Source of the DNA: Nemertoderma westbladi | Taxonomy: Eukaryota > Animalia > Xenacoelomorpha | Direction of reading: 5' to 3' | NCBI GenBank assembly: GCA_032718475.1 | Contig: JAUCBJ010000814.1 | Span: forward strand, 1 to 45,011 | DNA length: 45,011 nt | Part shown: positions 2,782-28,180 of the stretch, one piece after another | How the letters are laid out: the number at the start of each line of letters is the position of its first letter | Position numbering within the stretch: position 1 is the first letter of the stretch | Translations under genes and position numbers: made by a program | The notes under the pieces: generated by a model | What the model saw: only the letters and a program-made list of their open reading frames with translations | What the model was told of the DNA's origin: nothing | The model's database searches: none

Positions 2782-3051
2782 ATAACAGTTATAGCTTCTG
2801 GATTGCGGTGTAAGCAATCTAGTCGAAAGTACCGGTCAACCGGAAACCTGACTGCCTGATCATCCGAACCGGTACTTATAGTACAGGTACAGCAGTATTA
2901 TTCGATTTGATTATTATATGCCGGTAGGTCTTAATAATTAATCGGGGACGCCTGGTTTTTATTGGGATTTTACTTAGGCCTATTTCTGTCAGTTTTATTT
3001 ATTTGTAGGCCAGTATTGAGCAGAAGGCGTGTAAGCCTGCTCAGATTGTAC

Positions 3052-4580: not shown

Positions 4581-4825
4581 ATACCGGTATTTACAATAGG
4601 CTTATTACCTTTATTTTCATAAACTTAAGCTGAAATCATACCGGTATTCTGTAATTAATTCTAGTTAATAATTATACTTATATATACTATAAGTGTAAAC
4701 TGCATACCGGTATCCACGATAGGCCTATTATATATTTATATATATTTGTGCTAAAATTATATACCGGTTTCTGTGAAAAACCTAGTCTGTAATAATACTT
4801 ATATATACCATAAGTATACCGGTAT
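4581..4825. repeat. Array of five ATACCGGT(A/T)T palindromic motifs at ~55-66 bp spacing
   Basis: Motifs at 4581, 4638, 4704, 4761 and 4816, with a ~120-bp higher-order duplication. Confidence 0.75.
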
Positions 4826-4956
4826 TCTAATATTATATATCACGCTACACTGAGTAGCAGTATCGGTAATTAATTACTAGGCTAGCAGTTAACACTGAAT
4901 TCCTAGACTTGCTTAGACTGTAATATAGCAGTAGACATTCAACTGTGTAAACAAAC

Positions 4957-5235
4957 ATGTCTGATACTAAGCAGAACATGTCAGACAGTTTATTAGATGT
5001 AACTATCTGCGACTCAGATAAGGGTGTAGAACCGTCTAGTCCTAAGTTCAGTTCACCTCCCACTGTGAGGAAGGTCATCCCTCCAGTAGTAATAACAGAA
5101 CCGAGGCTGGTCCAACATCGTAGGTCTATCATAGGCACTCGAGCTCAGGTCAAGCGGGACCAAGAAGCAGCGGAACAGCAACAACCCGCGAGCCAAGAAC
5201 TTATTTCTCAGCGGCCCAACAGCTCCAGTAGTTAG
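4957..5235 (+). CDS. ORF0, 92 aa, Ser/Pro-rich; probable N-terminus of ORF1 (same frame, one TAG between them)
   Basis: Same frame as 5272-7077. The 12 codons between the TAG (5233) and the ATG (5272) are open. Base composition changes to coding-like at ~4957. Confidence 0.6.
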   Translation: MSDTKQNMSDSLLDVTICDSDKGVEPSSPKFSSPPTVRKVIPPVVITEPRLVQHRRSIIGTRAQVKRDQEAAEQQQPASQELISQRPNSSSS

Positions 5236-5271
5236 GATACTGTAGAGCTGACACCCGAGCGCGGAGCAAAG

Positions 5272-7077: not shown

Positions 7078-10000
7078 GTTAGAGTTGCAAGAAGTACAGC
7101 AAAATATCGCGCTAGAACGTGATAAATTAGTAAATTTACAAAAGGGTATACCACCACTCCTTGCAACAATGTGTCAACCTGTTAGGTCTGAAGTATCTCA
7201 TGCGCAAGGTGTGGAGCCTACACGCATCTATACTGCTAGCGAAGTAGAAACTCCTATAGTGAACCCTATTAAGGGTAATTATAGACCTGTTGATAATGAT
7301 ATTCCCTATAGACCGGATCATAATCCGAGAAATTTATATACCGATAACTCGATATTAAATAACACGATGGCCCAAGAAAGTTTTACGCGTCAAATGGCTA
7401 GAACCGAAGCCCGGCAAGCGGTAAAGGTGGGAGAGATCGTCAAGTTCAATGGAAATGAGATGAAATGGTTACCTTTTGATGAATATTACAAAGATAACAT
7501 ACAGAACTCTGTGCTATCTAATGGAGAGAAACTTAGATTCCTCATCGAGTGCTTGGAAGGATCTCCCAAGTTAATGGCGTTAAAGTTTATTGGACATCCT
7601 GACGGATTAAGACAAGTTTGGGATACACTAAACATCAGGTATGGTAATAGGAATAACATAGCTGGGTATTTGTATGCAAAGTTGGTAGCGCCCCGAAAGT
7701 TTATTAGCAGCGGAATTATAGAGTTTTCCGATGAGATTCAGGAGATCTGCAGACAATTAGATTGGCTAGGTAAGTCTCATGAGTATCAGAATGCTATGGT
7801 TATTAGAGCAGTGGCTTCTACTTTACCGAAGGGTGGAGTAGGTACACGCTGGGATAAGAAAGTGCTATATATGATGGAACAACAACGACGAGACCCTACC
7901 ATGGCTGATCTCATGTCATTCCTAGATGGAGAAGTGAAATTACAGCTCCTGAAACTGTCCAGAGAGAAGACACCGGAAAACAAGGTAAGTGAAAAACCCG
8001 TCGCTAGGAGAAAGGTAACACCAGTGTGTTATACAGATGATGGCGAAAGCCAGACTTCTCAAGGAGAAGATAGCGGGAAAGACACTGACAGATCTTATTA
8101 CGTAAATAAAATGCCTAAAGATCAGGTAGGTAAATTCAAGTCTCGAACAAATGACAGGAGAGGACAGGTAAGAAAAACTCCTCCTACGTCTCCCAAGAGA
8201 ATTCAGGTGAGAAAGCCCAAAGAAAAAACAAGTGTACACAATGTTACTCAGAGTAAGGTGAGTAACATCAAACCGAAATGTGCGCTATGTGATGGGACCC
8301 ATCGCTTAAATATGTGTGATGAATTTCTAAAGAAATCATTAACTGAGAGACGTGAAGTCATGTGGGATAAGCGGTTGTGTTATAATTGCCTCAGACATGG
8401 ACACCAACGGCGAACCTGTTACTCTGACACAAGATGTGCCAAGTGCGGTGCGAAACATCATATCTTGTTGCACACTGAATTCGAGCGAAATAGTCCGAGT
8501 CAGGTAAGTGATTCCGAACTACATGTCCAATTCAGTGATGTGAACGACACTGATCAATCTGAGATGGAAGGATTCTATACGGACGAGTTCTCCGACGAAA
8601 ACGAATCCTGTTACACGATAAATACCACAGTGTATCGAGCACTCACATATGAAAGAGATACGGACAGCGACCTTACCCTAACTACTTCTGATCAACAACC
8701 ATTTTGGAAAGCGCCAACTTCCAATGTAGGGATTAGAGAATTTCCTGTGGTACAGGTAAGGGTCCACGGACCAAAAAGGAGTTATGTAGTGAACGCCCTC
8801 CTTGACTCCGGTAGTACAGGAACATTCCTCGACAAAGAGCTAGCCGAAGACATATTCGATGGACAACCCAAGTTCCGAACTAAGCTAAACATGTCAGGAA
8901 TTATGCAAGTTTGGAAATCCACAGTAACAGCGGATTATTATGTAGGTGCGTTGTCCACCCCCCAGGATGAACTAGGAGAACGTAGCATAAGGTCAGTGAA
9001 AATGGTGGCTATAAAGAATTTCGCTACTACTCAAGCAGACCTTTATAATTGGGACGAGGATGAGAGCATTCAATATCTTAAGATACCTCGATTCCAGACT
9101 GATTATCCTGGAGTGCAAATACTCATCGGCCAAAACGCGCATGAGGTGCTCGAGACATTGGAGAAACGGCCTGCTCAACCGCAGCCACTACAGACCTATG
9201 CGGTAAGAACTAGAGTAGGTTGGTACTTTACTGGCCCTTCCCGTAGAACTCTCATGGAAAGATTACCGAAAGATCAGGTATATCAAGTGCGAGAATGGGA
9301 AGTTGAGAACAGTGAGTTCGACGATCCAACTGAGGGAACTCCATACTCCTCAGACAACGACGATATACATCAACTTTTTGATGAGGAGAATGCCATCGAT
9401 CACCTTAAGGAAAGCGAGACTTGGCAAAATCAAGTGAACTTATGTCAACTCCTTCACCCATCTGAGCGAGACGACTATAACGACGAGCTTAATGACGTCA
9501 TTGAACGTTATAATGCCAAGACTCGGGATGAACATGCCGTGAGATTCTTTACTCAAGAGGTCGTAGAGCCCAACTCCTACGATAAGGCCCTATCGGTGGA
9601 GGAAGAAAGAGCCAAGCAGATCCAAGCGACAACTACTCGTTTTCTTAAAGATCAAGGTAGGTATGAGATCGGACTTCCTTTCCAAAAGCGAGAACCAAAG
9701 TTTATTAACAACAGACCTTTGGCGGAGAAAAGAATTGCTCAATTACATCGACGCCTTACGGCAAATTCTTCAGCTAAAGAAATGTATAAAACACAGTTGA
9801 AGAAGTTTATTAGCAAGGGATATGCGGAGCTAGTACCGGAAGAAACCCCTATAACTGAGAGAACGTATTACTTAACTCACCATTACGTTCCCAAACCCGG
9901 TAAACCCCATGAAGTACGAGTGGTGTTTGACGGTTCCGCCCTTTATATGGGCCAATCTCTTAATTCTGAATTGTTACCCGGACCCAACTTACTCCAATCC

Positions 10001-13000
10001 TTGTTGGGAATATTATTAAGATTAAGACAATACTCCATTGCTTTCGCCTCAGATATAGAAGGCATGTTCTTACAAGTCAAAGCGCTGGATAGGGATCGAG
10101 ATAGCCTACGATTTTTGTGGTGGCCTGAAGGAGACCTCAATAAGAAACCGGTGGAGTACTGGATGACCATCCAAGCTTTTGGGATAATCTCGAGCCCTTC
10201 AAACGCCTGTTCCGTGGTGCGCACCACTGCGGATGACAACCGAGACGCCTTCTCTAAAGAAGTGATCGACAATATCAAACGAGACATCTACATGGACGAT
10301 AATCTGAAGTCCCTTCCATCAGTCGAAGAAGCCATTGAGGTCGCTAAAGGAACGGTAGCATGCTTAAAGAAAGGTGGATTTCGATTAACTAAATTCACCA
10401 GCAACTCCCGTGAGTTTCTGGAGTCGATCCCGGTAGAAGATCGAGGAACAAAAGACCTAGATCTAATAAAGGATGATCTCCCAGAAACTAAGACCCTTGG
10501 TTTGAAATGGGACACAGAAAGAGATATCCTGTTTTTCCAACTAAAACAGCGAGATAATCCAGTTCGGACTAAACGGATTTGTTTAAGTATCCTGAGCACT
10601 TATTTCGATCCATTGGGATTTATTAGCCGAGTTATATTGATTGCTCGGAGTTTAGTACAACAAATGTGGCTTGAAAACCACTCATGGGACGATCCACTTA
10701 AGGGAGAATTATTAAAGAAATGGATGAAATGGGAAGATTCTCTACCAGCCATCGAAAACTTCATAATTTCCCGTTCATATTTTGGTCATGTTCTCCCTAC
10801 GTATTCATATCAACTCCATGTGTTTGGAGACGCCAGCGATATGGGAATCGGTATAGTAGCCTACCTAAGGGTGGAAACTCCGGACGGAATTAAAGTCGCC
10901 TTGGTTACCTCTAAGGCATTAATAAACAACAAGTTGAAAGTTCCTCGAGCGGAGTTAAAAGCGGCTCTATACGCTACAGCCATCGGCCGGAATGTAACAG
11001 AACAGATCGACTATCCTCTGGAGAAAACTGTCTATTGGACCGACGCTTTACTCGTGTTGGAGTATATAACCAATGAAGTATGTCAGTTCAGCGTCTTCGT
11101 TACCAACAGAGTAGCTATTATACTCAGTCGCACGACGATGGATCAATGGAGACATTGCCCCGGAACGATTAATCCAGCAGACATCGCTTCCAGGGGAGCA
11201 ACTCCGCAAGAACTGGTAGATACTCCAGACTGGTTAGGTGGACCCGACTTCCTCTACAAAGAAGAAGAAGAATGGCCTCCTCATCTTACTACAGCAGAAA
11301 TTAGACAGGCCAAGGGAGCGGAGAAAGTCAAACCTAAAACTCAGGCGAGTAAATCGAAGTTATTCAAACCCACAGTAGATCTGACTGTACTACATACTTC
11401 CGGAGACGAAGCTTTGGATCAGAAACCTACAGCCACAAATAAACTCGTTGTGGAAATCCGTGATAAGGATTGGAAATCTGGCATACCTGACATCTCGCAA
11501 GGACTCTCACCTCTTCTGCAGAGAGCGATACATCACTACAGTTCTTGGAATCGGCTTTGTAAGGCCGTTACATATTTAAAGAGATGTTTTCACCATCACT
11601 ACTCTGGGATGAAAACAAAGGGTGATACCGCTCCAATCACATCAGTGCAGGTCCATGTTATTAAAGACATTCCCAAATATAAGGTACCCGACAAGTTTCT
11701 GAAGGAGAAGATCAGTTATCAGGAGCATGAAGAAACCAACAAACAGATGCTGAGACTCTTACAATGCTATGAAGATTCCGATAAGTATTTCCTGTTGTTG
11801 AGAAATCCACAGATGCGCTTAAGGGATCGTTTCTCTAGCACAATGATAGATGGGTTGATACGTGTTGGAGGAAGGTTAACGAATGCCCCATTATCCTTTG
11901 ATACTAAGTTCCCCATACTCATTAGAAATCTTGAAATACAAGTCAAGATGATTGTAGATGTTCACAGCAAACTTTATCATGCTGGTAGAGAACGAGTTCT
12001 TAGCGAAATTCGAACTCGCTATTATTTTTATAAACCCCGTAGAGCTCTGAACCAAGTTCTTAGGAACTGTATACCATGTAGGAAAGCATTCAGTAGGCCT
12101 TTAACACAGAGAGAGGCAGAATTACCTAGGGAACGAGTAAGCTTTTATGAACCACCCTTTACTAATACCGGTGTGGATTTATTTGGCCCTATTGAAGTAT
12201 ATCGTGCTAGGACTATAGTCAAGAGATGGTGTGTAATCTTTGTTTGTATGACTTGTAGAGCTATCCATCTCGATATGGTGAACGATTTATCTACCAACAG
12301 CTTTCTATTAAGCTTACGACGACAGATCGCTCGCTTTGGCACTAGTAACACGATGAGATCTGATAAGGGAACAAACTTCATTGGTGCCAACAATGAAATC
12401 AAAGCTTACGTCAAAGATTGGAACCAAAGACAGGTGGACGACCAACTACGAGTAACAGCGTCTAGTTGGACCTTCAACGCCGCCGACGCCCCTTGGTGGG
12501 GAGGAAGTTGGGAGAGATTAATAAGAAGCGTGAAGACAGCATTTCATTTTATAGTGCCTTGTCGCGCTTATCTCACCGACGAACTTTTGCGGACGTTAAT
12601 GGAAGAAATCGCCGCCTATCTCAACGAGAGACCGCTTATGCCAGTGTCATCGAGTCCCGATTCCCTGGAAGCGCTAACACCCGCGCACTTCCTACTGAAG
12701 AAACCTGTAGCCATGCTCCCACAATCGGAAATCACAGACGGAGACGAATACTGCCGACAAACTTGGCAACTCATGCAGTTGTTATCCCGTCGCTTCGCTG
12801 ACCATTTCGAAAAACATTATCTGCCCACGCTACAACTTCGAACTAAGTGGTTTGCGCAGCAAGAAAACGTCAGCGCTGGAGACATGGTTCTTATTGTGGA
12901 TGTAGATCTTCCACGTAAGAGGTGGCAGACAGGTCGTATAATCGAGACCCACATCTCGGATGACGGTTTGGTGCGATCGGTAGAACTCGTCGTCATGCGA

Positions 13001-13174
13001 CTTAACTTCAAGAAACCGGGAATTGTCTTCGAGACGCAGCAGCTCAATCGCCCGGTGGGACGTTTATGTTTACTGGAAAGAGACAGAGAACTCTCCGGAA
13101 ACTATGGGAGACAAGATACTCTTCCCACGACCACCTCCCTAATCCAACAAACATCTAGGGACTCCCCAACTTAA
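6830..13174 (+). CDS. gag-pol: Bel/Pao Gag-Pol polyprotein (Gag core, 3 zinc knuckles, aspartic protease, RT, RNase H, integrase)
   Basis: Gag core KFNGNEMKW...EKLRFLIECLEG...RYGN. Knuckles CALCDGTHRLNMC, CYNCLRHGHQRRTC and CAKCGAKHHILLH (8279-8474). Protease ALLDSGS (~8804). RT VRVVFDGSA, SDIEGMF and YMDD (10289). RNase H LHVFGDAS, VPRAEL and NPADIASRG. Integrase HHCC, GVDLFGP, SDKGTNF and WERL. Confidence 0.97.
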   Translation: MRQFMPWTPSEIFMICRPLSLVRPLQRWRIPFRRLIGWTRDGGGWTLDILLEKMEENRVRSSQQVRELEGTVQQLKGTVKESRLELQEVQQNIALERDKLVNLQKGIPPLLATMCQPVRSEVSHAQGVEPTRIYTASEVETPIVNPIKGNYRPVDNDIPYRPDHNPRNLYTDNSILNNTMAQESFTRQMARTEARQAVKVGEIVKFNGNEMKWLPFDEYYKDNIQNSVLSNGEKLRFLIECLEGSPKLMALKFIGHPDGLRQVWDTLNIRYGNRNNIAGYLYAKLVAPRKFISSGIIEFSDEIQEICRQLDWLGKSHEYQNAMVIRAVASTLPKGGVGTRWDKKVLYMMEQQRRDPTMADLMSFLDGEVKLQLLKLSREKTPENKVSEKPVARRKVTPVCYTDDGESQTSQGEDSGKDTDRSYYVNKMPKDQVGKFKSRTNDRRGQVRKTPPTSPKRIQVRKPKEKTSVHNVTQSKVSNIKPKCALCDGTHRLNMCDEFLKKSLTERREVMWDKRLCYNCLRHGHQRRTCYSDTRCAKCGAKHHILLHTEFERNSPSQVSDSELHVQFSDVNDTDQSEMEGFYTDEFSDENESCYTINTTVYRALTYERDTDSDLTLTTSDQQPFWKAPTSNVGIREFPVVQVRVHGPKRSYVVNALLDSGSTGTFLDKELAEDIFDGQPKFRTKLNMSGIMQVWKSTVTADYYVGALSTPQDELGERSIRSVKMVAIKNFATTQADLYNWDEDESIQYLKIPRFQTDYPGVQILIGQNAHEVLETLEKRPAQPQPLQTYAVRTRVGWYFTGPSRRTLMERLPKDQVYQVREWEVENSEFDDPTEGTPYSSDNDDIHQLFDEENAIDHLKESETWQNQVNLCQLLHPSERDDYNDELNDVIERYNAKTRDEHAVRFFTQEVVEPNSYDKALSVEEERAKQIQATTTRFLKDQGRYEIGLPFQKREPKFINNRPLAEKRIAQLHRRLTANSSAKEMYKTQLKKFISKGYAELVPEETPITERTYYLTHHYVPKPGKPHEVRVVFDGSALYMGQSLNSELLPGPNLLQSLLGILLRLRQYSIAFASDIEGMFLQVKALDRDRDSLRFLWWPEGDLNKKPVEYWMTIQAFGIISSPSNACSVVRTTADDNRDAFSKEVIDNIKRDIYMDDNLKSLPSVEEAIEVAKGTVACLKKGGFRLTKFTSNSREFLESIPVEDRGTKDLDLIKDDLPETKTLGLKWDTERDILFFQLKQRDNPVRTKRICLSILSTYFDPLGFISRVILIARSLVQQMWLENHSWDDPLKGELLKKWMKWEDSLPAIENFIISRSYFGHVLPTYSYQLHVFGDASDMGIGIVAYLRVETPDGIKVALVTSKALINNKLKVPRAELKAALYATAIGRNVTEQIDYPLEKTVYWTDALLVLEYITNEVCQFSVFVTNRVAIILSRTTMDQWRHCPGTINPADIASRGATPQELVDTPDWLGGPDFLYKEEEEWPPHLTTAEIRQAKGAEKVKPKTQASKSKLFKPTVDLTVLHTSGDEALDQKPTATNKLVVEIRDKDWKSGIPDISQGLSPLLQRAIHHYSSWNRLCKAVTYLKRCFHHHYSGMKTKGDTAPITSVQVHVIKDIPKYKVPDKFLKEKISYQEHEETNKQMLRLLQCYEDSDKYFLLLRNPQMRLRDRFSSTMIDGLIRVGGRLTNAPLSFDTKFPILIRNLEIQVKMIVDVHSKLYHAGRERVLSEIRTRYYFYKPRRALNQVLRNCIPCRKAFSRPLTQREAELPRERVSFYEPPFTNTGVDLFGPIEVYRARTIVKRWCVIFVCMTCRAIHLDMVNDLSTNSFLLSLRRQIARFGTSNTMRSDKGTNFIGANNEIKAYVKDWNQRQVDDQLRVTASSWTFNAADAPWWGGSWERLIRSVKTAFHFIVPCRAYLTDELLRTLMEEIAAYLNERPLMPVSSSPDSLEALTPAHFLLKKPVAMLPQSEITDGDEYCRQTWQLMQLLSRRFADHFEKHYLPTLQLRTKWFAQQENVSAGDMVLIVDVDLPRKRWQTGRIIETHISDDGLVRSVELVVMRLNFKKPGIVFETQQLNRPVGRLCLLERDRELSGNYGRQDTLPTTTSLIQQTSRDSPT

Positions 13175-13699
13175 CAACGGCTGGAGTGGGTGTGTGACCA
13201 TATTATTTATATTTGTATTTGTTTTATTTTTATATTTATGTATGTATTATTATGTAATTTTATTTTAATCGTTTTATTTAATTTTATTTAGTAGTATGGT
13301 ATTTTAGAGATTATTTAGTAGATTAGTGCAATATATACTCACGTTTATTATTTAATTACGTATATTATATATTTAGTGCGACGGCGAGAAATAATTATTT
13401 TTCTCTTTCCTTACTGTCCGTATCATATTATAAATACGTGACTACAGTAAGATGAAATATCCGTACTTATTAAAGTACAATAAAGCCACTACTATATTTA
13501 AGTATTATTGGTAGGCAGAGTATTAGGAATGCAAAGTTCAGATCCTCGTGTCTCGGCTAAACCAAGCTCTGGGTAGACCTTGGAAACGACTTGCCTCTTC
13601 ACACTGACATTGCTTCGTGCGATATTGCTCTCATACCGTATATTAAATAATACATATAGTAGCGTGATGTCACTTTAACAGTAGCGTATAACGCAAAAT

Positions 13700-14020
13700 A
13701 AATCTGTTAAACCCTTTGACCATCTGTAATTCTAGTCGATTAAGATATCGCGGCACCCACCGATATACTTGAAAGACAAATTTCTAGAATCAATGGTTAA
13801 CGTCCCCAGACAAGTTCTGGAATAAACTGGTGCCCATCCTAAATATTAATTATTAATATTTACAAAAATCTGTCAAATATCAGATCCTTTAACAATTCTA
13901 GTCGATTAAGATATCGTAGCATTTACCGATACTCTTAAAAAGACAAATTCATAGAATCAAGGATCCCAGTTCCCAGATATGCTCTGGAATCAAATTGTGT
14001 CAATTTAACTATTAAATAAT
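13700..14020 (+). repeat. 166-bp tandem duplication in the pol-ORF3 spacer; each unit can form a hairpin
   Basis: AATTCTAGTCGATTAAGATATCG at 13728 and 13894, with alignable downstream sequence. Confidence 0.8.
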
Positions 14021-14816
14021 AAAATTTACGGGAATAAATTTAAATTCATATATTTCAATGAATTTAATAAATTGTCATTTTATACAATTTATAACATTCC
14101 CAAAATTCCATTAATTAATAGATCATGGGAGCGGAGATTCACTCTATTAAGTGTATTTGTGTGCGAGAATCTTCAATGTATAGTCAATAGCCGATAAAAT
14201 TCATAGAATCATGTATAAAGGGGATATTGACCATTAAAGAATTACTATTAAATAGCATCCGAGATCTGTATGCATGAGAATTACCCTAATTCTACCGCTA
14301 GCTTTCCATAATGTCACCATAGCAACAACCACGCTAGAATTAGAAGTGAGTTAAAAGAACAATAGAAAGCATACCCCATTGAATAGCATAGGGAATAAAT
14401 AGCGCACTGCTAGTATCCAAGGATACATAATAAATACAGTGACATTCTGGAAGGTACTGACTAACGGACAAATGGCCCGAATGTGTGCAGTTTGTTGCAG
14501 TTGTGTTGAATTTGTGCGTTTGTAGGTGAATGTTACTACTAAGGTGTGATTACAGTAGCGAGTCGCAATTGTGAAAGTAACCCTAACTCTCCAAGAAGAA
14601 CCTGCAGTACATCTAAGCCCTTGGGACGGACAGTTAAGTGACTTGTGCCGGTTATCGTTGTCGTTGTGTAGCTACATCGTTGGCGAAAGCACAGCGACGA
14701 CGGTACATCGGCGCTGAGGATCTTATACTGTCCGGGGGCAAAAGAGGGGTAGGCAGCGACGCCCGCTAGCCTAATATATATAGACTCATTATAATATTGA
14801 TAAACTCATAGCAGAT

Positions 14817-17800
14817 ATGACTGAGCTGATAGAAGATGATCTTGGCATCAGGGAGCGATATACTCTACCTTTACAAGCGTTTGTCGATAGCTTGATACGC
14901 GGCGACGCTGGTCCAACTACTACGGAGGATGATGGTCGTTATATCGAACCGTCGATGTCCCCGGAGCAACTTACGCGTGAATTGGACTATAGAAAGTTCA
15001 CCGCTCGCTATACGCATCGTAATGGTACGTATATGGACTTCTTAACTACCGGCCACCCTATCGATTTACACGATACGGATGATGTGGATACCGAAAGGGA
15101 AATGGTTTTATTTAAATATCATACCCAACGGAATCGGAACGATAAGCCAAGAATAGAACACGAGAACTCTATTCGAAACCGACTCGAAAGAGAAGACGTT
15201 GAAGAACCGGATAAACGCAACGACTTCAACGATTATCTGGAATTCTTGAGAGAAACATACCTCAATATTGCCAGTCAACAAAATCTCGAAACTCGATATC
15301 CTCAAGGTATACATCATGATCCTATGATAGAACTCAAACGACTCTATTTCACTATGATGTATCTTACCGCCGATCGACCGCTACCTGTTGTCCCAGATAG
15401 CTTCGAACAGATGGAGGAATATTGTAAAACTGGAGAACGATCACCCGCGTTTCCTCTGCAGGACATGCGTCTTTGGTATTACTATGACGAATGCCCTAGA
15501 CCCAACCAGCAAACGGAAAGACATAAACATCCGCGGAGACGTTGCGCTAAACACAGTTTTACACGATATACTTACGGGAGTTTCGAGCGAAACCTGTTCG
15601 ACGTGTCCCCTGCGGTCGCTCGACTCAAGCGATCCTTGAACAAACCGATGATCAGAGTTCCGGAATACTCGGTCAGACCTCCGCATTCCTCAGTTAGACC
15701 TCAAACTCTTGACCCTAATAGTATCACGGATCCTCCCGAACTGTACTCACTGTTCAAAGATCTAGTGTTACCCGAACAGTTGATCGGTGGCACTCCGGTA
15801 GTAGTCTCACGAGACATTCGCCAACCCTACCTAGCTGGATTGGGACGTGGTCATCTAATATCGCCGTTTAACCCATACAACCGTCCCGGCTTCACCTCTA
15901 TCCAACCCGTTACGGAAGTCGAAGAGAGCGTCGTACGAAACGCATTAGACGCTATTCGGCAGAAAATCGGAAAGGGAACGTACGATTGTTTGGAGAAGCG
16001 TAAATTGCAGCAACAAGTCCAAGTGGTGAAGGAATTAGCTTTACCCCAGTTCGATAGAGAAATACAAAATCTCGAGGAGGACATCGAACGTGGACGAACC
16101 TACTCTTTACAAGAGTTTCTAGATGAGCGTCTACAACAACAAGCGGAGGAGAATCAGCTCGAGGAGAGACATATAGAACTGGATGAGAGAGAAGAAGCGG
16201 CTTTAGCTCAACCCGAAGCGCAAATCCTTATGACGGATCTCTACTCTAAAACCATTCTTCATCCCTCGATGGTTCCCCATTTCGGAGACAAACTTTTTGC
16301 GACGGCACAACCCCAACCGGTTGATATCAACCTAAGATCTCGCGATCTTATCGCCGACGCTCCTCTGTTGCAGCGTCCGCCCATCGAACCCGCTCGTGTC
16401 GATGGTATACTCGTTGAACCTCCGGACAATAGAGCAGATCTTGTCCGTCGCATGGTACACGATGTAAACATACACGCTAGACCTTTACCAGACTCGTTTT
16501 ATGGGATCAAAGATCACCCTTATTACGTCAATCTAAAACAATATTACATGGTAAAACCGGAAGATCCTACACATAGTCTGAAGTTTCTACCGTTAATAAA
16601 TCCTCTCGATCTTGTCGAACTCGAACAACTGCAGAAACATCTGGATCAGTTAGTTAAAGTAAACTCGTTTCGAAAACCATATAATGTTTCCAGAATAGAG
16701 AAAGAAACAATACCTCCGTATAATCTTGATGGATTCATAAAAACTCGTTTAGTGCACTGGAATCTTGATGTGTTATGCGAGGAGGAAAGAATACAACGAT
16801 ATGGAGATGTGGAAACATATACCACACAATGTTTAAAGTATAAAGACCTGCCTAATGCTAGCGAATGTGCTACCTTGTGGCATCCTGTGGGAATGACACT
16901 CGAAAACGCCACTAAAGAGTGGAACGAAACTCTTAACGTTATCGAGATGTATGGAGTTGTCACTTACGATAACGAAGGTAGCGTTCCGGTTGGAGAACTT
17001 GGAACTACGCGGATGATACACATACGAGGACTCGCTGGTTCTACCCACGTATTTACTCGAGCGTGTTCCGACGTTATTGATTATTCTTTTGAAACTCTTA
17101 CTGAGATACAAAAGAAACTCCGACATGGACAATTTGAACTCGCGCAGCGTTACGTCACCGACACCGAACGCAAACCGGCCATGGGTATCGATGGATCGAT
17201 GTTACCCCAACCCATGCTCGAGATGTTGTTTAACGAAGGAATCCTTAAAATCGGCTCAGCTGTTTATGGAGACCTACAGAACGACTTTTGGAATATGGAG
17301 AACATTCCATACCCCTTCGTTGATACTCAGCTGATTGCTCCTTGGGCAGAAGGCCGAGGTTTCTTCCACACTACGTATGCCAATACACCCAGCGGAATTA
17401 CCAAAGTACAACGAACCTCCATCGGACATCTTGCCTTTCAAGAATACGGATGGAATTTCAAGGTTGGAAATCCTATAAATTACCAACAAGTATACGGAGA
17501 TCATTATTCTCGTTTATACTTTGATGGACCATTGACCGCACCTGGCGCCGTGTATAGCTTTATGAGTGTTCCACTTCGTCCCTCCTTAGCTATATACACG
17601 ATCTTTGAAAACGCAGCACTTGCCGGTTGGCTAGCCGATGTGTGCAGTCGTACCATACGCGCCCATCCCTTAATACTTGGAACCAAACTCGCCAAGTTAG
17701 ATGAACACAATAAATTCATCCGCTTTGAATGTTTCAGGTGCTTTCTGACTCCGTTCCGTAACGTTGATAGTCAGTTCAAGGACCGCGCTCTGACCAAACT

Positions 17801-17906
17801 CAGCCTGAGAGACTCAGCGGCGGAGAAGCTAAACAGCGCGGGATTTGCCCTTTTTCAGGACGTTTGTATACAGAACTTGCACTCATCTGTTATACAAAGA
17901 CCCTGA
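14817..17906 (+). CDS. ORF3, 1029 aa accessory protein with a C-terminal DEDDy (WRN/EXD/RNase D-like) 3'-5' exonuclease-like domain
   Basis: ExoI VVTYDNEG (D718/E720). LPQPMLEMLFNEGILKIGSAVYGD (ExoII D819). FVDTQLIA and SIGHLAFQEYG. ExoIII-like PLRPSLAIYTIFE (Y927/E931). No signal peptide or transmembrane segment seen, so it is not env. Confidence 0.8.
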   Translation: MTELIEDDLGIRERYTLPLQAFVDSLIRGDAGPTTTEDDGRYIEPSMSPEQLTRELDYRKFTARYTHRNGTYMDFLTTGHPIDLHDTDDVDTEREMVLFKYHTQRNRNDKPRIEHENSIRNRLEREDVEEPDKRNDFNDYLEFLRETYLNIASQQNLETRYPQGIHHDPMIELKRLYFTMMYLTADRPLPVVPDSFEQMEEYCKTGERSPAFPLQDMRLWYYYDECPRPNQQTERHKHPRRRCAKHSFTRYTYGSFERNLFDVSPAVARLKRSLNKPMIRVPEYSVRPPHSSVRPQTLDPNSITDPPELYSLFKDLVLPEQLIGGTPVVVSRDIRQPYLAGLGRGHLISPFNPYNRPGFTSIQPVTEVEESVVRNALDAIRQKIGKGTYDCLEKRKLQQQVQVVKELALPQFDREIQNLEEDIERGRTYSLQEFLDERLQQQAEENQLEERHIELDEREEAALAQPEAQILMTDLYSKTILHPSMVPHFGDKLFATAQPQPVDINLRSRDLIADAPLLQRPPIEPARVDGILVEPPDNRADLVRRMVHDVNIHARPLPDSFYGIKDHPYYVNLKQYYMVKPEDPTHSLKFLPLINPLDLVELEQLQKHLDQLVKVNSFRKPYNVSRIEKETIPPYNLDGFIKTRLVHWNLDVLCEEERIQRYGDVETYTTQCLKYKDLPNASECATLWHPVGMTLENATKEWNETLNVIEMYGVVTYDNEGSVPVGELGTTRMIHIRGLAGSTHVFTRACSDVIDYSFETLTEIQKKLRHGQFELAQRYVTDTERKPAMGIDGSMLPQPMLEMLFNEGILKIGSAVYGDLQNDFWNMENIPYPFVDTQLIAPWAEGRGFFHTTYANTPSGITKVQRTSIGHLAFQEYGWNFKVGNPINYQQVYGDHYSRLYFDGPLTAPGAVYSFMSVPLRPSLAIYTIFENAALAGWLADVCSRTIRAHPLILGTKLAKLDEHNKFIRFECFRCFLTPFRNVDSQFKDRALTKLSLRDSAAEKLNSAGFALFQDVCIQNLHSSVIQRP

Positions 17907-17942
17907 ATACCCACGGGTTATTCTGTCGTCGAAGTTCAGACA

Positions 17943-19070
17943 GTGGGTCCGCTTGCGGAGACAGCCGCACCTACCTCAGCTATGCAATTGGAAGACGAAC
18001 CAATATGCTTAGAAGCTGAAGTGATTCAGCCTACAGCGCCCCGGAGCAGCGATAACGACTACGTCTTAGAGTGGTATCAAGGTCCACAATGTCTCACCGC
18101 ATACGATTATCGACACGCTAACTATGTTTCTCGAAAACGTTGTCGATTATGCGCATCGAGAGACCATTTCACTCCTATGGACTCAGACGTACCCTGTTCC
18201 TATTTCCACGAACAACCAATGATGGAGATATATTGTGCGTATTGCAGACTTAATAACTCTCATATTTTTGCAGTCTGCCCCCAATTTATGACTCAATGCC
18301 ACCACTGTCAACTTAAAGGACATGCCAGTTATAATTGCCCCTTTAATCACGATTTAGAGAGCGTAGATGAAATGATTACCCTGCGCTACATCCGAGCTTG
18401 GGAAGCTAACGCGGATTTACACTGTGAGTCCCGTCATCGATACTACCCTGGACGCTCTTACGAGGGAGTTTACGCGTTCCATCCTTATTTATTAGCGTCT
18501 GTAGAACAAAAAACACGCATACCGAGTTACGAGCTAATGAAGCGTGTTGGTGAGTGTATTTCCACTAAATTTGTTCAAAAATACCTTAGGAACGTCAATC
18601 CTAACGATATTACTTCATACCATTTGATCAATTATATCCGTCAAGACCCTGAGTATGGCGATTTATTTATCAACTCGCACCCTGAGTTACAGGAAGTATC
18701 TCGACGGCCCTACGAATATCGAGCCCGAGAACGCGAGCTGGAAAGAACTATTAAACCAAGGAAGTTTCTTACCACTCACGGTCCGCCTACCGCCATTGCC
18801 CAGACAACCCGTCAAGGACCCGTAGGAGCTGCTGTCCTGAGGCGCGCCCTAAAGGCTGTTAGACCTCGCTCCACGGAAGTTGATATCGATCAACCAGGTA
18901 CCTCGACCGGCGGATACACCGATCGCAATCCGAAACCTTCTGATGCAATTGTATTGCACCCTTCACCCAGGAGTTACAGCCCTCCTAGTAAAGTGGCTCG
19001 CCCCAAAGAGAAAAGGACTCTTGCTAGCCTCAAAAAACTGCGTAAACGCCGTCCGCGTAAGAAAGACTAA
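17943..19070 (+). CDS. ORF4, CCHC zinc-knuckle protein with a basic NLS-like tail; probable C-terminal continuation of ORF3
   Basis: CRLCASRDH...C, CAYCRLNNSHIFAVC and CHHCQLKGHASYNC (18141-18338); tail KKLRKRRPRKKD. Same frame as ORF3, with only the TGA at 17904 between them. The listed start is GTG; the first ATG is at 17982. Confidence 0.8.
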   Translation: MGPLAETAAPTSAMQLEDEPICLEAEVIQPTAPRSSDNDYVLEWYQGPQCLTAYDYRHANYVSRKRCRLCASRDHFTPMDSDVPCSYFHEQPMMEIYCAYCRLNNSHIFAVCPQFMTQCHHCQLKGHASYNCPFNHDLESVDEMITLRYIRAWEANADLHCESRHRYYPGRSYEGVYAFHPYLLASVEQKTRIPSYELMKRVGECISTKFVQKYLRNVNPNDITSYHLINYIRQDPEYGDLFINSHPELQEVSRRPYEYRARERELERTIKPRKFLTTHGPPTAIAQTTRQGPVGAAVLRRALKAVRPRSTEVDIDQPGTSTGGYTDRNPKPSDAIVLHPSPRSYSPPSKVARPKEKRTLASLKKLRKRRPRKKD

Positions 19071-19138
19071 CTGTTTAGAGTATTTTTATATTTTAGAAAC
19101 TGTGATTTGTTATATTTTATAGACTTAAATCCCATTTT

Positions 19139-19148
19139 CTGGGAGCGG
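19139..19148 (+). other. Polypurine tract (plus-strand primer)
   Basis: CTGGGAGCGG directly before the 3' LTR TG. Confidence 0.7.
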
Positions 19149-20326
19149 TGTAAAAGCTTTTGCGTCATTAACCGGTTATTTTCCCTTAAAGTACTCTGTG
19201 GTTGGTTTACCAGGCATAAAAAGGCCGTGTCCTTGCTGTACTGGTGTTTTAGAGGACATAAACGTCATTTCTTCTGTATTTGTACTTTAGAGGACATAAT
19301 CCGCAATCTCGTGACGCGATAAGCTAGATACTCTTGAAAACAGTGTCGCTACCATGACGACGGCTAGCAGCTGATATTGCCACGTCGACATTTCTTTGTT
19401 TCTTTGTTCTCTCGTTGTTCGGTTGACCAATCAGAGCGTTTTTTGTCTCTGTGTTGGAGGTGTATACAGAACTCAGTAGTTCAGTGTTATGTTTTTTGCC
19501 CAGAGCCTAAGAACACCGGCTTTTGGCACCTCCGTATATCAGCATTCTTTAGCTTTACATTAGTAGGCTTAATTATAGAACGTATATCTGTTATCATACT
19601 AACCAAACGACTAACTCGAGTTACTGAGTTAATTCACTCACTTAATAATCATTTATGCATTAACTTTACTGCTTTTACTGTCGGTTATTCATTATATTGG
19701 TTGATGAAATATTATATCGGAATACTGATCAATAATCAGACACCCAACCTTCTTGATATACTAAAGGTTAGAGAGACCGGTTACAGATAAACGATTGCGA
19801 CCTATGTTAAGTGGTTTGAAGTGAATCTAATGCTATTTCATATGCCCAACATAAATTGTCTGTTGCTCTCTTTATACATGACTAAATTTAGTGAAGGTCG
19901 GCAGATTAGTGTGCAGTATTGTGCAGCATTGTGTATGAGTGTAACTGATAACAAAGCATCTCCTAAAGAATGCGCCATATACGTGAATCTATAACCTTTT
20001 CGTTGTGACTAGTTTAAGCCATAACTCTGTTTACATATTTAGAGCGCCACGTCCTAAAGGAACTGTTAATATTTCCCGAAAGTGAATAATATTTGTCAGA
20101 GATTATATATTACGATCAGTCGAATAATACAGTAGGCTTACATCATCAATCATTAAGCTCCGAACTCAGTCTCCCGGGTATATCCAACGGGTGAATGATT
20201 GCGCATAGACTGGCTTCGGCTAATGTAGTGTATCAAATACTCGTCATAGGCTAAAGACTATCTATCATCCAAAAGACATTCTAATTTTGGCAGGTTAAAC
20301 TGTCAAAGGTCTTAAAAGCGCAAACA
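19149..20326 (+). repeat. 3' LTR
   Basis: Near-identical to 1604-2781 and followed by the TSD CATAT. Confidence 0.97.
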
Positions 20327-20810
20327 CATATATATAAATTATACATATAGTGAGACACAAAATGTAACATAGGGGTCAGCTATTCATACAAGCCGTACTA
20401 TTCTGACAAAAATTTACAGAAAATGGGCATCCTGAAAATTTAAAAACAAGCGCATCTCTTAGAAGACATATTAAGTTGTACGGATATTAAGTTTTGTTAA
20501 TTTACTATGTATTTAAATGGTAAAATAATTAAAAAAATGTAATTTCTAAAATTATCGAAAAATGACTTACACATTTATTTTAAAAGATAATTTAAGTGGA
20601 TTTATATGTTTAATATGAGAGAATAAATGCTAAAAATTACTTATCAAACCAGATAGCGGTTATTGTTATTAAATTTTGCATATGTAGATTCAAAATGCAA
20701 AGGTAGCAGTACCGTCATTATTTAACAAATATTAATTGATTTATTCGAAATCTAACAATTTATTATCACAACTTTTTTATTGAAATAGTATTATTTTTCC
20801 CCGTGGAAAC
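20327..20810 (+). repeat. Right half of dispersed AT-rich repeat copy A
   Basis: Colinear with 21476-21960 (e.g. AAAGATAATTTAAGTGGATT, CATATGTAGATTCAAAAT, AAGGTAGCA.TACCGTCA). Confidence 0.85.
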
Positions 20811-21397
20811 ATATTAACCATAAAAATGTAACAGAAGCTATTATTCTGAAACATTAATATTTTATCATTTTTCCAGAAGTAAATTTTCAGATTATGTATT
20901 TAATAGGTATTTCTTTCAGTTTCATGATAATTTCCTAAATTGTTGTTTATTAATTAAAAGCATAAAACGTTTTACATCTCTAACTGCTATTAGAAAATCA
21001 ACGCTACTTTCTGTTCAATTATTCAAGTCATATTCAAATTATTTATTTACTCAAACAGCCAATTTATTATTGAAGTATGAAAATCTTGGGGATATGGCAA
21101 TGGTGCATAGAAGGTAATTGCTTTCCTTGATATCGTAAAGTACGGAACGCCAGTAGTAGCTATCCAGTTTACCCATAATAGGTACATATATATACCTATT
21201 ATAGGTACACATAAAGGTAAGACAAACTGAAAGAGAAAATAGCTACATCGAGATGAATTAAATTTACTGATAGCCAAACCCTGAAGGCTTACACTAACGC
21301 ATGACTCGCCCCTTATGCTTCTGTGTCTGGCACAATTTACCATTGCACATAATACTGATGCCTGGCATGTATTTGATTCACCTGAATCAACAAAACC

Positions 21398-21960
21398 GCT
21401 TTCTCAAATAAGTATTAGTCAATGACGCTAAATAAAACAATAAGGTAGCATTTTGCGACGGTTTGTGTTTTAAACATATATACAAATTATACATATATTG
21501 AAACACAAAATGTAACATACATGTCAGCTACTCTTACAAGCCATATTATTTTCACGAAAAATTTCACAAAAATAACATCCTGATAATTTAAATCGAGCCC
21601 ATCTATTAGAAGAGTTGTTAAGGTGTATGAATATATAAGTTCCGCAGCTTTTCAATGTATTTCAGTAGCAAAATTATTCAAAAATCAAAATTTCAAAAAT
21701 TATCAAAAACATAACTTCCCCTTTATTTTAAAAGATAATTTAAGTGGATTCATAAGTTGAATGCATAGGAGAATCTAAGCTAAAAATTACTTATCAACCC
21801 ACTTAACGTTTAATATTATTAAATTTTCCATATGTAGATTCAAAATACAAAGGTAGCAATACCGTCACTATTTAACAATTTATAATTGATTTATTCATAA
21901 TTTAGCAATTAAGAAAACATGCAGTTTTAATTAAATAGATATTAATTCTTCTCAATAAAA
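21398..21960 (+). repeat. Dispersed AT-rich repeat copy B (uninterrupted); probable non-autonomous element
   Basis: Aligns with both flanks of the LTR element and with the reverse complement of 26797-27268. Confidence 0.85.
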
Positions 21961-23548
21961 CAATTAATGGGTGGGTATGCGAAATATACAGTATACTGTA
22001 ATATGATTTGCAAACAAAAATATTAAACAATTTACATGACTACGAATTGTATATCGTCTTTGTATATCAAGCAATAAAGTCAATTATTATATTATTAATT
22101 GGCAACAAAGATAAATTATTTTATTCCAAACTTGGATTCTATTGCAAGGGATTGATTTGACCGCACTGGTGTGAACTACAGATTGATTTCTCTACGATTT
22201 CTTGTGAACTCTTTCATTTTCTGTGACAGTTTACTGTGCGCGATATTGCTCTCGAAGATCCAGTAAGCAACCGAGGGTGGACTCTCTATTGCCGAGGGGC
22301 ACTTGTATAATAACTAATAATCACGAACCCCGTCCTCTTATAATATACACCTAACTCTGCAGTAGTCAGTAGTAGTAGTAGTAATAGTAGTTAGTAGTGG
22401 TAGTAAGTAGTTATAAAGGAGATGAGTTTAAACCAAAGTGATAAAGTAACATTATTATATAACATAACCATATAGACAAAGTAGAATAAGATACGGATTC
22501 ATAATTATTTTATCAAACTCATGTACTACTTACTTCAATGTGCCAATTGTAACAATAATTAAACATATTATTCTGATTAATCTGCGTTTGGCCCCATAAA
22601 ATATTATACTGAAGTGTTTTATATCAATATATCCATGCGAGTAAACAAGAACTGAAGTAAATGTTTATTATTATAGTTTTAGAAATTGAATGATATACCC
22701 AAGATAGTGAAATAAATAATTTACCAGAAATTGCCATTTGATCAGATATATCAAAGCAGAGTCTTTACTATAATACCGTAATAGTATCAATTCACTCTGT
22801 TATACAATGTAAATATACTAAATCTATTTATAAATATATTATGAGCCCTACATTGTATATTTCTCCCACAGGTAGACAATGTAGTATGTTAAAACTTGAT
22901 ATAATTTGGTATAATGTATAACATATTACAAATAAGACTGAGGCAGCTAAACTATATTGCAAAGAATTCAAATATCCTAAAGTAATATACTAGACCCTCC
23001 CTCAACCTTATAAATAGCGTTCACCACCTACCCCACCCACCGCCCTTATTACTATATAATAATGAAAGATAGTACTGGCGCTCCGGTCACTCCGTTCCCT
23101 CCGCTGGGGGGGTTAAGTTGTAGGTTTTGACACTATGCAAATTCCGAGCACAGAGTTAGAAGCGCATTGGATAGGCGAACATTTCTTGCAGTGAAAGTAT
23201 TTCCATACCTGTTATAGTTTTCGAGATAATCAGACATGAGTAGCTAAAATTTAATTTTTTTTCGGTAAAGTCTGATTTCACCGGTACCTGTCATCCGAAA
23301 TATGGATTGTGATATATCGTTAGATGCCTGTCCACTAACTGTACATTCACATATTTTCAAGGAGAAAATTCGATCAAGGGTTTTCGAAATATGTTCGAAT
23401 TACCGGAAGCAGACTTTGGACGATCATATCTCCAGTACCAGTAGGCCTATTGAGTCGAAATTTGTTTTAATCTACTTAGAACACTTCAGTGAATGTTTTT
23501 TAGTTTGAAAGTTTTGCCCAAAAATGCTCAGAAGTAATTTCGAAAAAA

Positions 23549-24680
23549 CTGATCATTTCGCGATCATGATCTTTTGACCCCCTAGAATTGAACTTTTTTA
23601 TGGTCAAATTTTGGCTACCCCCCCTAATTCGAGGGTGAGGAATCTTTTTGTAATGTTAAGTTTTTTCATACGGTGAACTCACAGGACTTGGTCTTCGAAA
23701 TAAAACCGAAAACATGATCTTTCTTGATCATGGCCTGATTAAATCGCTTTTTGAAAATTTCGAAATGCTCAAAAGTTGCCCCTTCTTAATAGAAGTCGAT
23801 TATTAAAAAAAATCGGGGGTCTCAAACAAAGTTTTCGAGAAAATCGGGAAAAACCGAAAAACACAATCTTTTATGATCAGGAAGCTGATCTCGAGAACTG
23901 GTTGACCGATCGAGCCATTTTTTTTTTAATCAACTCAGAATAGACCATTGCACATTTCTTACAATGAATGTTTATTAGAAAAACGCTTAGATTCGATTTT
24001 AAATATACTGATCTTTTCGCGATCATGATCTTGAGTTTTGACCCACTAGACTTGAACTTTTTAATGCCCAAATTTTGGCTACCCCCCATAATTCGAGGGT
24101 GAGGAATCTTTTTGTGATGTAAAGTCTTTCCATACAGTGAACTCCCAGGACTTGGTCGTCGAAATAAAACCGAAAACACGATCTTTTCTGATCGCGGCCT
24201 GATCAAATCGCTTTTTGAAAATTTCGAAATGCACAAAAGGTGCCCCTTCACCATAGAAGTCGATTCGTAAAAAAAAATTCGGGGGTCTCAAACAAAGTTT
24301 TCGAGAAAATCCGAAAAAAATAAAAAATCTGATCTTTTATGATCAGGTATCAGATCTCGAGAACCGATTGTCCGATCGAGCCAATTTTTTTTAATCGACT
24401 CAGGGCGGTGTTCTGAACGTTTCCTACAGTAATTGTTTATATCCAAAATGCTTAGTTACAGTACGATTTTATGAAGTCCGATCTTTGCGCGATCATGATC
24501 TTGCGTTTTGACCAGGAAGAATTCACTTTTTTTTTAATCTTTTAACGGGAATCATGACTATTGTGGGGTCGCTGAATCTCTTTGTAATGTTAAGTTTTTC
24601 GATTGGAGCAAGCCTTGAGTGTCCGATTGCTGATCAAAACTGATCTTTGCTGATCATGGTCAAGATCATGATCTGATCGC
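23549..24680. repeat. ~460-470-bp GATC-rich tandem repeat, 2 full units and 1 partial, probably internal to a non-autonomous DNA element
   Basis: (C/T)GATC...CGCGATCATGATCTT..TTTTGACC starts at 23549, 24008 and 24478. Units 1 and 2 are highly similar. Confidence 0.85.
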
Positions 24681-26796
24681 TCCAAAAAAAGATATTTGAA
24701 GGTAAACCCATATGCTGCCTATCGATTGGCGCCGGTCCCAAGTCCGTAGCATTAGCGGTTCTGGAGATATGCGCATAGCAACGCAGTTGCTAGGGAAGCG
24801 GACTTTTTGACTCAAATTGGTCCTAGACGGAGAACCGTAGACTTTTTTAACACATTATGTATGGCGAAAAGTTGTCTCGATAAATTTGGGGGGGGGGGTC
24901 TAGGAACATCCTATTGTTCGTTTTCGCTTAGTTGCTGGGATCCTCTCGTCCCCCAAATCCCAGGATTCTATAAAGGCATTCTGCTGGACTAGTTCTGTGG
25001 CCGGAAAAGTTGTCGGTGTTCTGCGAACAGAGAACCTAATCGGTTTAGGGCCCTGACCGTCCAGCTCTCGAACCGGGAAGAAACTTCGTGGTTTTCTTTA
25101 CAGACACGTGACTTTCCTCTCTGAAGCTGATAATTCCACTTCCAACAGGTTAAATAATAGTTGTTTTAACTTTTATTTATTTTCTTTTAAAACGTTTATA
25201 TTTTGATTGTATAAAGGTTGGCTGGCAGCTGACATTGGCTAATTGTACATTGTATATATTATTAAACTTACTCTAGAACGAAATAATTAATTCATAATAA
25301 TTCAGATATGGCAGACTTTCGACGCGACGACAGAAATCATCCCTCCTCCTAGTGGAAAATCGGCGCTGATTACTCCCAAAATTAAAACTGTCACCTGTAC
25401 TAATGACTTTAGTTTATTGTTTTGGTTAGAATAACGCATCACTGCAACCCGCTCTTTTCCCTAGTAGATAATTTAACATTGCAACAAGATATAAATATAA
25501 ATGAGGACTACTTGCGCCAATGTATATGTTTGATTTAATGGTGCAAATTGATTGCAAACATATTTTAATAATAATATTAATAATAAATAATTAGTAATCC
25601 AATATGAAGCTGTTACAAATAATATTTAAGTACAATATTTACATTACGTGCTAATAAATTCCTTTCCCAAGCCAATATTTTTCTTACTACAAACCACATA
25701 ACAGCATTTGGTTAATTAAATGCAGCTTATTTACTGTTCTCTGATTGGGCGAGACCAGACGTCTATTAAATGGTTGGCGTATAAGACATTTAAGGAAAGG
25801 TGGGTTGACTCATTGTATTGTGTTATCAAGGTGTAGGGCCTACGTACACCTTATGTGTTATGCATTGTATTGTGCATTCTGTCCAATTGTTCGTTGCCAA
25901 GCAACCACATACAGTCATAATAAACTCGAATAAATAAACAACCTGTTAGGCCTACCAAATGCAGTACTCTACTACCACTACCACACATCAACAGATGGGC
26001 TTGAGTTGGTATTAATTTTTTTATTTACAGTTTGTTGGTAGTAGGCCTACTGTAGTACATAGTCGATGTTGAAGCGCAGGCGATCACTGAAGGCACTTTT
26101 GGCGCTACTTTAATGTGAGATTCACTTACAATCTGCCTTTCGCTCTGGCGAAACACACTCGGAATACCGATACCCAATGCTGAACTTTTCAACTGTTTCG
26201 AGACATCTGATTACGATTCTTCTACGACCTGCCGTTCCCTGAATAAGACTTCGCTATCAAAAAAATGTGGTCTTGGCATCTTAGAATCGAAGTTGGTAAA
26301 GTCAGGTAATCAGCTCCGGTGAGAAGAACAACTGAAGTAAACAACTGACTGACTGAGTTCCTCCGCTGTTAGAGAGCGCTATATCGCGCACAGCAAATTG
26401 TAAGAGTTCGAGAAACTGGAAGAGTTCGCGAGAAATCGTAGATAAATTGTTCTGTAGTTCAACAGCGTGGTGGCCCACTCCCTCCCGATAATTTCTTCAT
26501 ATTTTTAATAATAATTTTAAACTAAAGATAATTTCTTCGATTGAGTGTTTGGAATAAACGTATACGCACGTATACTGAGCGGCCCGGAGGCTGACCTCTC
26601 AGCATATGGATTCTGTCGCCGCCGCCGTAACGAACATGCATCACATAGACTCCAAGAAACAGATGGGATTGGAGGATGAAAACCAATAATGACTTACATC
26701 AACCAAACAATCTGCCGTCTAATGTAATACACAGTCGCCTAAGCAGACAACTCACAATCACATCCTGATCCGCAACCTGGGAAATTGTTATATATT

Positions 26797-27268
26797 GTCG
26801 GTACTGCTACCTTTGTATTTTGAATCTACATATGCAAAATTTAATAATATTAATCGTTAAGTAGGTTGATAAGTAATTTTTAGCTTTGATTCTCCCATAT
26901 ATTAAACTATTATAAATCCACTTAAAATATATTTTAAAATAAAAGGGAAGTTATCTTTTTGATAGTTTTTGAAATTTAAATTTTTTAATTATTTTACTAT
27001 TGAAATACATTGGAAAATTAACAAGACTTAATATTCATACACCTTAATAACCGTTATAATAGATGGGGTTGATTTAAAATTATCTGGATGTTATTTTTGT
27101 GGAAATTTTCGTAAAATAATATGGCTTGCATGAGTAGCTGACGACTATGTTACATTTTGTGTTTCAATATATTTATAATTTATATATATGTTTAAAATAC
27201 AAACCGTCGCAAAATGCTACCTTATTGTTTTATTTAGCGTTATTGACTAATACTTATTTGGGAAAGCG
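26797..27268 (-). repeat. Dispersed AT-rich repeat copy C (inverted relative to A and B)
   Basis: Reverse complement of 21398-~21870, e.g. CAAACCGTCGCAAAATGCTACCTTATTGTTTTATTTAGCG. Confidence 0.85.
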
Positions 27269-27880: not shown

Positions 27881-28180
27881 GATCTCTGTGGTACATACAT
27901 ACATACATACATACATACCTGCAAAGTTTCAGTTAGAACAGCCTTAGTCTTAGTCTAATGGTGAAACTGCAGTTACAAAGTCGCCTGAGTCCTGATTGCT
28001 GACCAGTAATATATTTTGGCCTAAAACGATGCAAAATAATCCACTTTGACCACATTCGATTCACGCAAACAAATACTTAAAATATGACGAGATAGTGACG
28101 TTGCTCAAGTTAGCTTTCTATTATTGTATCGCGAGACAGACAGACTGAGATTTATAAGACTTAAAGTCAGAGATTTATAT

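Follow-up and report, generated by a model that had tools for sequence, protein, structure and literature searches.

Contig JAUCBJ010000814.1 of Nemertoderma westbladi carries, in the window analysed here (positions 1–45,011, forward strand, to which all coordinates refer), an 18.7-kb Bel/Pao retrotransposon (18,723 bp, 1604–20326) with a third open reading frame (ORF3) in the env position. ORF3 is a real, conserved and long-standing accessory gene of this Bel/Pao family. The family form of the gene has 1417 codons, with a domain resembling RNase D and related DEDDy exonucleases, followed by three CCHC-type zinc knuckles. Judged from the sequence, a DEDDy-type fold is highly probable. We propose that the gene encodes an RNase D-type 3′–5′ exonuclease that would trim the 3′ ends of single-stranded RNA and blunt host silencing, a reading whose chances as a whole we consider evenly balanced. 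Among its parts, an active nuclease in the family is slightly favoured, and counter-silencing as the job of the protein is plausible, if somewhat short of probable.

The initial annotation described ORF3 as an intact sense frame of 1029 codons lying inside the long terminal repeats (LTRs). A frame of this length is present at 14817–17906 on the forward strand, the strand of the whole element, and the motifs named in it were recovered (YDNEG at aa 717, LPQPML at 796, GSAVYGD at 813, FVDTQ at 834, SIGHLA at 868 and SLAIYTIFE at 923), together with residues D718, E720, D819, Y927 and E931. The frame is not intact: it ends at a single stop absent from other copies, past which it can be read on through a further 387 codons (17907–19070) to a basic tail. 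We compared four public sequencing runs (X1, X3, X4 and X5), one of which bears a second organism code. At the first base of the stop, the contig depth differing from the window, which does not equal copy number, was 114,430 of 114,508 in X1 (50 contigs), 128,070 of 128,070 in X3 (36 contigs), 1,275 of 1,275 in X4 (7 contigs) and 6.3 of 6.3 in X5 (1 contig). Since any change at this base gives a sense codon, the family frame has 1417 codons and the copy in the window is truncated; it would rely on other copies for the full-length ORF3 protein. The annotation had missed the C-terminal third of the family gene, zinc knuckles included. Programmed readthrough of the stop was considered and rejected, the other copies being without it.

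The N-terminal ~694 residues of ORF3 (14817–16898) belong to no recognised family, as had been noted from the start: the first 699 residues give no significant match in PDB, Pfam or NCBIfam. This region, for which a coiled coil had been proposed, includes an E/Q-rich segment (aa ~400–475), and its residues 41–170 are 34–54% identical in a decayed sister element described below. No env-type signal peptide or transmembrane anchor was found (maximum 19-residue hydropathy 1.19 and 0.59), and because no 19-residue hydrophobic segment exceeds 1.19, the ORF3 product is not an env protein.

The exonuclease-like domain spans aa ~695–950 (16899–17666) and is made up of the candidate ExoI residues D718 and E720, an insertion of ~35–45 residues, the ExoII residue D819, a DTQ motif at 836 and the ExoIII series Y927-x3-E931. 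Searched alone, the domain has rnd (TIGR01388, E 0.022) as its top NCBIfam match. A profile of ORF3, the sister relic and P0001, a protein relative discussed below, has E. coli RNase D as its top PDB match (E 0.0032). A profile–profile comparison with 30 proteobacterial PF01612 domains reached a probability of 90.4 and a score of 47.1 over 64 columns around ExoII, against at most 5.2 and 24.1, respectively, in 100 column shuffles. Both P0001 and the sister relic retain the ExoII Asp (D819) and the DTQ motif. Taken at the level of sequence, homology of the ExoII region to RNase D is well supported. In the multiple alignment, D819, Y927 and E931 fall on the columns of the ExoII Asp, the ExoIII Tyr and the ExoIII Asp, with one aligner setting putting Y927 elsewhere. 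The position four after the Tyr, an Asp in the canonical motif, is a Glu in ORF3 (E931) and in P0001, in agreement with the Y-x3-acid motif with Glu for Asp read initially from ORF3 alone. Given this variant site, the domain is filed here as DEDDy-like, not canonical. Among 30 matches by ESM features, 24 lie in DNA_pol_A_exo1 clusters (best 0.91), which are leads only.

The best local placement of the helix-strand-hairpin module of P0001 on ORF3, with both matrices used, is at D718/E720, where we infer ExoI to lie. Two other registers, with ExoI at D755 or at D782, were considered and set aside at low confidence: both residues are in or just after a long predicted helix, and D782 is too near ExoII. 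This helix appears in both AlphaFold runs over aa ~753–781 at low confidence, and its predicted position would fit the insertion.

Several observations weigh against the reading of ORF3 as an RNase D-type nuclease gene. No exonuclease-related match reaches a curated cut-off, and Pfam gives nothing for ORF3. The first-ranked match of ORF3 in the Atlas is an unnamed cluster (0.92), and Atlas scores of 0.86–0.92 are leads only. The D718/E720 placement of the P0001 module, sought within aa 685–795 with the two matrices, was matched by 23% and 13% of 500 shuffles, and the default MAFFT alignments often prefer a register near D755 that has no Glu. The single-sequence AlphaFold model has a predicted local distance difference test (pLDDT) value of 32 and no fold match. 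A second model, whose alignment was seeded with C-terminal half-domains of RNase D, folds the ExoII–ExoIII half, with pLDDT 81–87 in blocks around ExoII, and leaves ExoI unfolded (pLDDT <50 at model residues 24–78). Its fold matches (best Z 6.4, best Foldseek E 0.065, rows 1–49 all DnaQ-like exonuclease proteins) are circular because of the seeding and speak for compatibility only. EXD1, EXD2, Nibbler/Mut-7, the WRN exonuclease and Egalitarian, which share the DEDDy motif order with ORF3, are among these circular matches, and none of them matches the ORF3 domain significantly in sequence. On the structural check that had been suggested, a clustering of the acidic residues in a DnaQ-type fold, the circular seeded model bears for the ExoII–ExoIII half only; the unseeded model matched no fold, and neither model shows the acidic residues clustered. 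Among the copies, only 6 of the 39 differences listed for 17560–17960 fall within the first 960 residues, and 4 of these are synonymous. Derivatives of the element lacking the exonuclease domain were seen in all four runs, and the copy in the window inserted recently although its ORF3 is truncated. The DEDDy domain first annotated in the env position of this Bel/Pao element accordingly stands on several weak but concordant sequence tests, and its ExoI and active-site clustering do not share in that support.

The three CCHC-type zinc knuckles (18141–18338), of which the first has a long H–C spacing, lie ~160 residues beyond the exonuclease domain in the family frame; the knuckle region has no significant match in PDB, Pfam or NCBIfam. 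A scan of 1.84 billion proteins with the exonuclease part of ORF3 retrieved one relative, P0001 (E 1.5e-4, 28% identity), a singleton encoded on a single 9.4-kb contig. It combines exonuclease motifs, three CCHC knuckles at the place matching those of ORF3 and a basic C-terminus in one protein. Its top Pfam matches are zf-CCHC and DNA_pol_A_exo1, both below cut-off, and its knuckles align with the ORF3 continuation frame (E 5e-5). The exonuclease part alone served as query for P0001, whose three knuckles thus support the architecture independently. Its best Atlas match is a euglenozoan cluster (0.86), of whose members 100% have PF01612 and 61% zf-CCHC; this feature score holds for P0001 only, and phmmer found no match to PDB chains of euglenozoan RND. 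Further searches retrieved no other relative, whether word-based with ORF3 aa 660–1029 (0 of 1810 candidates), with P0001 among 7989 proteins (itself only), with a profile among 7991 longer proteins (P0001 only) or in viral contigs, metagenome contigs and phages; animal repeats being scarce in the collections searched, the empty searches say little on the range of the gene.

ORF3 and P0001 have the series Y-x3-E-N in common, and at 28% identity both retain four acidic residues and the Tyr in order. Dead DEDD domains usually lose such residues, and this retention therefore speaks against a DEDDy fold of little or no catalytic activity that, together with the knuckles, would serve as an adaptor binding RNA, like EXD1, Maelstrom or Egalitarian, and localise, package or shield the element RNA. 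Such an adaptor is unlikely, if a serious contender; it would account for the Glu as fourth acidic residue and for an ExoI that is unproven and bears an insertion, the long N-terminal region could supply its partners, and the accessible text of the rotifer study PMC5408684 notes dead DEDD derivatives in piRNA biology.

The age of the gene is indicated by the sister element, which is decayed and internally deleted and lies at 33785–39002 (forward strand), with a gag relic (33785–35066) and an ORF3 relic (38046–39002). Compared with the element at 1604–20326, its gag pieces are 30–45% identical and its ORF3 pieces 34–54%, in the same order; the ORF3 relic is 48% identical over ORF3 aa 738–876, and its ExoI and ExoIII regions are gone by deletion. 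As ORF3 is as divergent in the sister (48%) as gag at its best (45%), the gene has accompanied the lineage ever since the split of the gags. Differences among the copies point the same way. In the interval 17560–17960, 40 of the 83 differences were listed and each was judged singly, with the stop site left out; 32 of the remaining 39 are synonymous, against an expected fraction of at most 0.31 (p 4.5e-11), and 33 of the 39 lie in the linker spanning the stop (28 synonymous). Among 40 listed of the 3198 differences along the whole element, 9 fall in ORF3, 6 of them synonymous, and 25 in gag-pol, 17 of them synonymous. These results leave little room for a recently captured host gene carried as a passenger, or for a chance series of motifs, which is the least probable of the explanations and largely refuted. 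A host paralogue is possible, and P0001 comes from a single contig; set against this are the same gene in the sister element at gag-level divergence, the synonymous excess among copies, and the exonuclease and knuckle parts, both of which independently match P0001. The initial annotation had named absence from sister copies or a recent capture as what would speak against the gene, and neither was found.

The family is abundant, multi-copy and young. Contigs matching a 19.2-kb element stretch number 142,152 in X1 and 38,772 in X3, most of them 90–99% alike, and each of the four runs covers every one of 30 bins along the stretch. Contigs of X1 and X3 also hold the empty site, where the joint between the flanks skips 18,728 bases (18,723 + 5); as these contigs join the flanks without the element and one copy of the target-site duplication, the insertion is recent and not fixed. 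Joints of an internal deletion in the integrase region (11328–13045) occur in contigs of all four runs, and two deletions that remove the exonuclease domain (15185–17990 and 16178–18936) in two of the four runs each. The internally deleted copies are likely non-autonomous derivatives. Together with the truncated young copy, they indicate that the full ORF3 protein is not needed in cis.

The element itself is delimited by a 5-bp target-site duplication (1599–1603 and 20327–20331) and by two LTRs of 1178 bp (1604–2781 and 19149–20326) of the TG…CA type, with 3 differences between them. A short purine-rich tract directly 5′ of the 3′ LTR (19141–19148) is the likely polypurine tract. The gag-pol frame of 2140 codons (6752–13174) comprises DUF1759, three Cys/His gag motifs, a protease, a reverse transcriptase (YMDD), the Pao RNase H (Peptidase_A17), an integrase and DUF5641. 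Its Pfam matches above cut-off, Peptidase_A17 (E 8e-35), DUF5641 (5e-19), DUF1759 (6e-10) and Integrase_H2C2 (9e-7), and the three gag motifs identify the element as Bel/Pao, so that the assignment made from the sequence alone is confirmed. An upstream frame of 613 codons (5236–7077), with no family match, overlaps gag-pol by 326 nt in a different frame; it contains an Ala/Glu/Lys-rich repeat, and the overlap lies near a G run at ~6957. It may encode an N-terminal gag portion linked to the rest by a frameshift; the two frames would be either separate or a single frameshifted gag-pol. The 2.4-kb leader (2782–5235) has two internal direct repeats (3052–3631 and 4581–4818).

Between pol and ORF3 lies an AT-rich, non-coding spacer of 1.6 kb (13175–14816) with a 137-bp direct repeat, 19 ATGs and 8 AATAAA signals. 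Because this spacer with its 19 ATGs precedes ORF3, the gene is likely to need its own promoter or a spliced RNA. Directly ahead of ORF3 (14776–14819) are a TATATATA run, ~35 nt upstream of the ATG, and a TAGCAG pair, 2 nt upstream of it, which are candidates for an internal promoter or a splice acceptor.

Downstream of the 5′ LTR (2782–2811) there is no primer-binding site of the tRNA type (no TGG start), a point in favour of an active nuclease that would process the RNA of the element itself, for instance by trimming transcript ends or generating the 3′ terminus of an unusual primer, without opposing silencing. We consider this improbable. The best contiguous self-priming match in the LTR is 8 nt, a 9-nt match across a GT–AG gap was equalled by at least 9 nt in 85 of 300 shuffles, and the best self-priming duplex was no better than in shuffles; self-priming and an element-encoded primer thus have no support from the complement and duplex tests. 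Most Bel/Pao elements, moreover, replicate without an exonuclease-like gene. On the other side, RNase D trims structured RNA 3′ ends, and 3′-end processing of element RNA is proposed in the accessible text of PMC5408684.

In the mechanism that we propose, ORF3 would be expressed from a separate RNA, its basic tail would drive nuclear import, the knuckles would grip single-stranded RNA, and the DEDDy-like domain would trim that RNA from its 3′ end, catalysis proceeding with a Glu in place of the fourth Asp. Trimming would most likely blunt small-RNA or tail-based host silencing of the element. A bolder form, which we rate as speculative, sees in the gene the Bel/Pao lineage's own active exoribonuclease, which has D-E-D-Y-E as its variant site and is otherwise similar to TbRND (RNase D from Trypanosoma brucei); it would destroy or de-tail the small RNAs of host silencing and so allow a large family of animal retrotransposons to reach high copy number, and full copies would serve truncated or deleted ones in trans. 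By analogy with TbRND, where CCHC knuckles on such a domain bind RNA according to the accessible text of PMC7797062, the knuckles would favour an RNA substrate over the proofreading of cDNA. This makes very improbable a DNA 3′–5′ exonuclease that would proofread or trim cDNA ends for an oversized genome, although WRN and polymerase proofreading domains are DEDDy members and the element measures 18.7 kb; in addition, ORF3 is a separate frame 1.6 kb past pol and not a fusion with the reverse transcriptase.

Elsewhere in the window, a fragment of another Bel/Pao-like integrase C-terminus (42437–43303) is 27% identical to the pol of the element. Long inverted repeats (~490 bp, 89%) lie ~4.9 kb apart at 21397–27268, with a third copy at 20326–20760; they are probably a DNA transposon or a family of miniature inverted-repeat transposable elements, the target of the Bel/Pao insertion. 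A 22-bp minisatellite (21.5 copies, 95% matches) occupies 28180–28651, and the window ends in a near-perfect fold-back with 189-bp arms (44521–45011, 95%), a palindrome or an assembly artefact.

Among known Bel/Pao elements, the roo and Cer types carry env. The element described here resembles the env-bearing Belpaoviridae in its gag-pol, its LTRs and a third gene between the integrase and the 3′ LTR; unlike theirs, its third gene lacks transmembrane and signal-like segments, and 18.7 kb exceeds the 2–15 kb given as bounds for full-length elements in the accessible text of a Bel/Pao survey (PMC3118150), where env is the sole extra gene mentioned. In keeping with the initial annotation, our literature search, with Repbase, GyDB, Dfam, subscription journals and supplements outside its coverage, found no Bel/Pao exonuclease gene. 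To our knowledge, the only nuclease-like third genes on record for LTR retrotransposons come from gypsy and Penelope-like elements of rotifers, where neither a selection signal nor activity was shown. These are the DEDDy ORF3s of the bdelloid rotifer LTR retrotransposons Juno and Vesta and of Athena/Terminon (PMC5408684; also PMC6431247, PMC6338049), for which the accessible text of Rodriguez et al. (2017, PMC5408684) gives a DEED motif, undemonstrated activity and no significant departure from neutrality. Like Juno and Vesta, the element of N. westbladi has an RNase D-like DEDDy gene with an altered acidic motif in the ORF3 position. It differs in being Bel/Pao, in its 1417-codon frame and in the motif D-E-D-Y-E; for the rotifer proteins, the same accessible text mentions neither a coiled coil nor CCHC knuckles at the C-terminus, two families having just a Cys-His-Cys motif. 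Whereas neutrality was not rejected for the rotifer genes, the differences among copies here are mostly synonymous, a comparison made by description and not by sequence.

In architecture, the nearest counterpart is TbRND, a cellular enzyme that trims guide RNAs, with the residues D80/E82/D145/D230 and four CCHC fingers near the domain, through which it binds RNA for trimming; its authors call the combination very unusual (PMC7797062, accessible text). In both proteins, one frame joins an exonuclease domain of the RNase D type to a CCHC array on its C-terminal side. Unlike TbRND as described there, ORF3 has three knuckles ~160 residues further on, a Glu as fourth acidic residue, an insertion and a 690-residue N-terminal region, and the likeness may be convergence. 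With its copy conservation, gag-level retention and fused array for RNA binding, the Bel/Pao case suggests repeated recruitment of 3′-end RNA enzymes by unrelated retroelements, and makes the ORF3 protein a concrete candidate for asking if retrotransposons of animals bring anti-silencing enzymes of their own. Its closest known relations are the DEDDy ORF3s of rotifer gypsy elements by position and the trypanosome TbRND by architecture.

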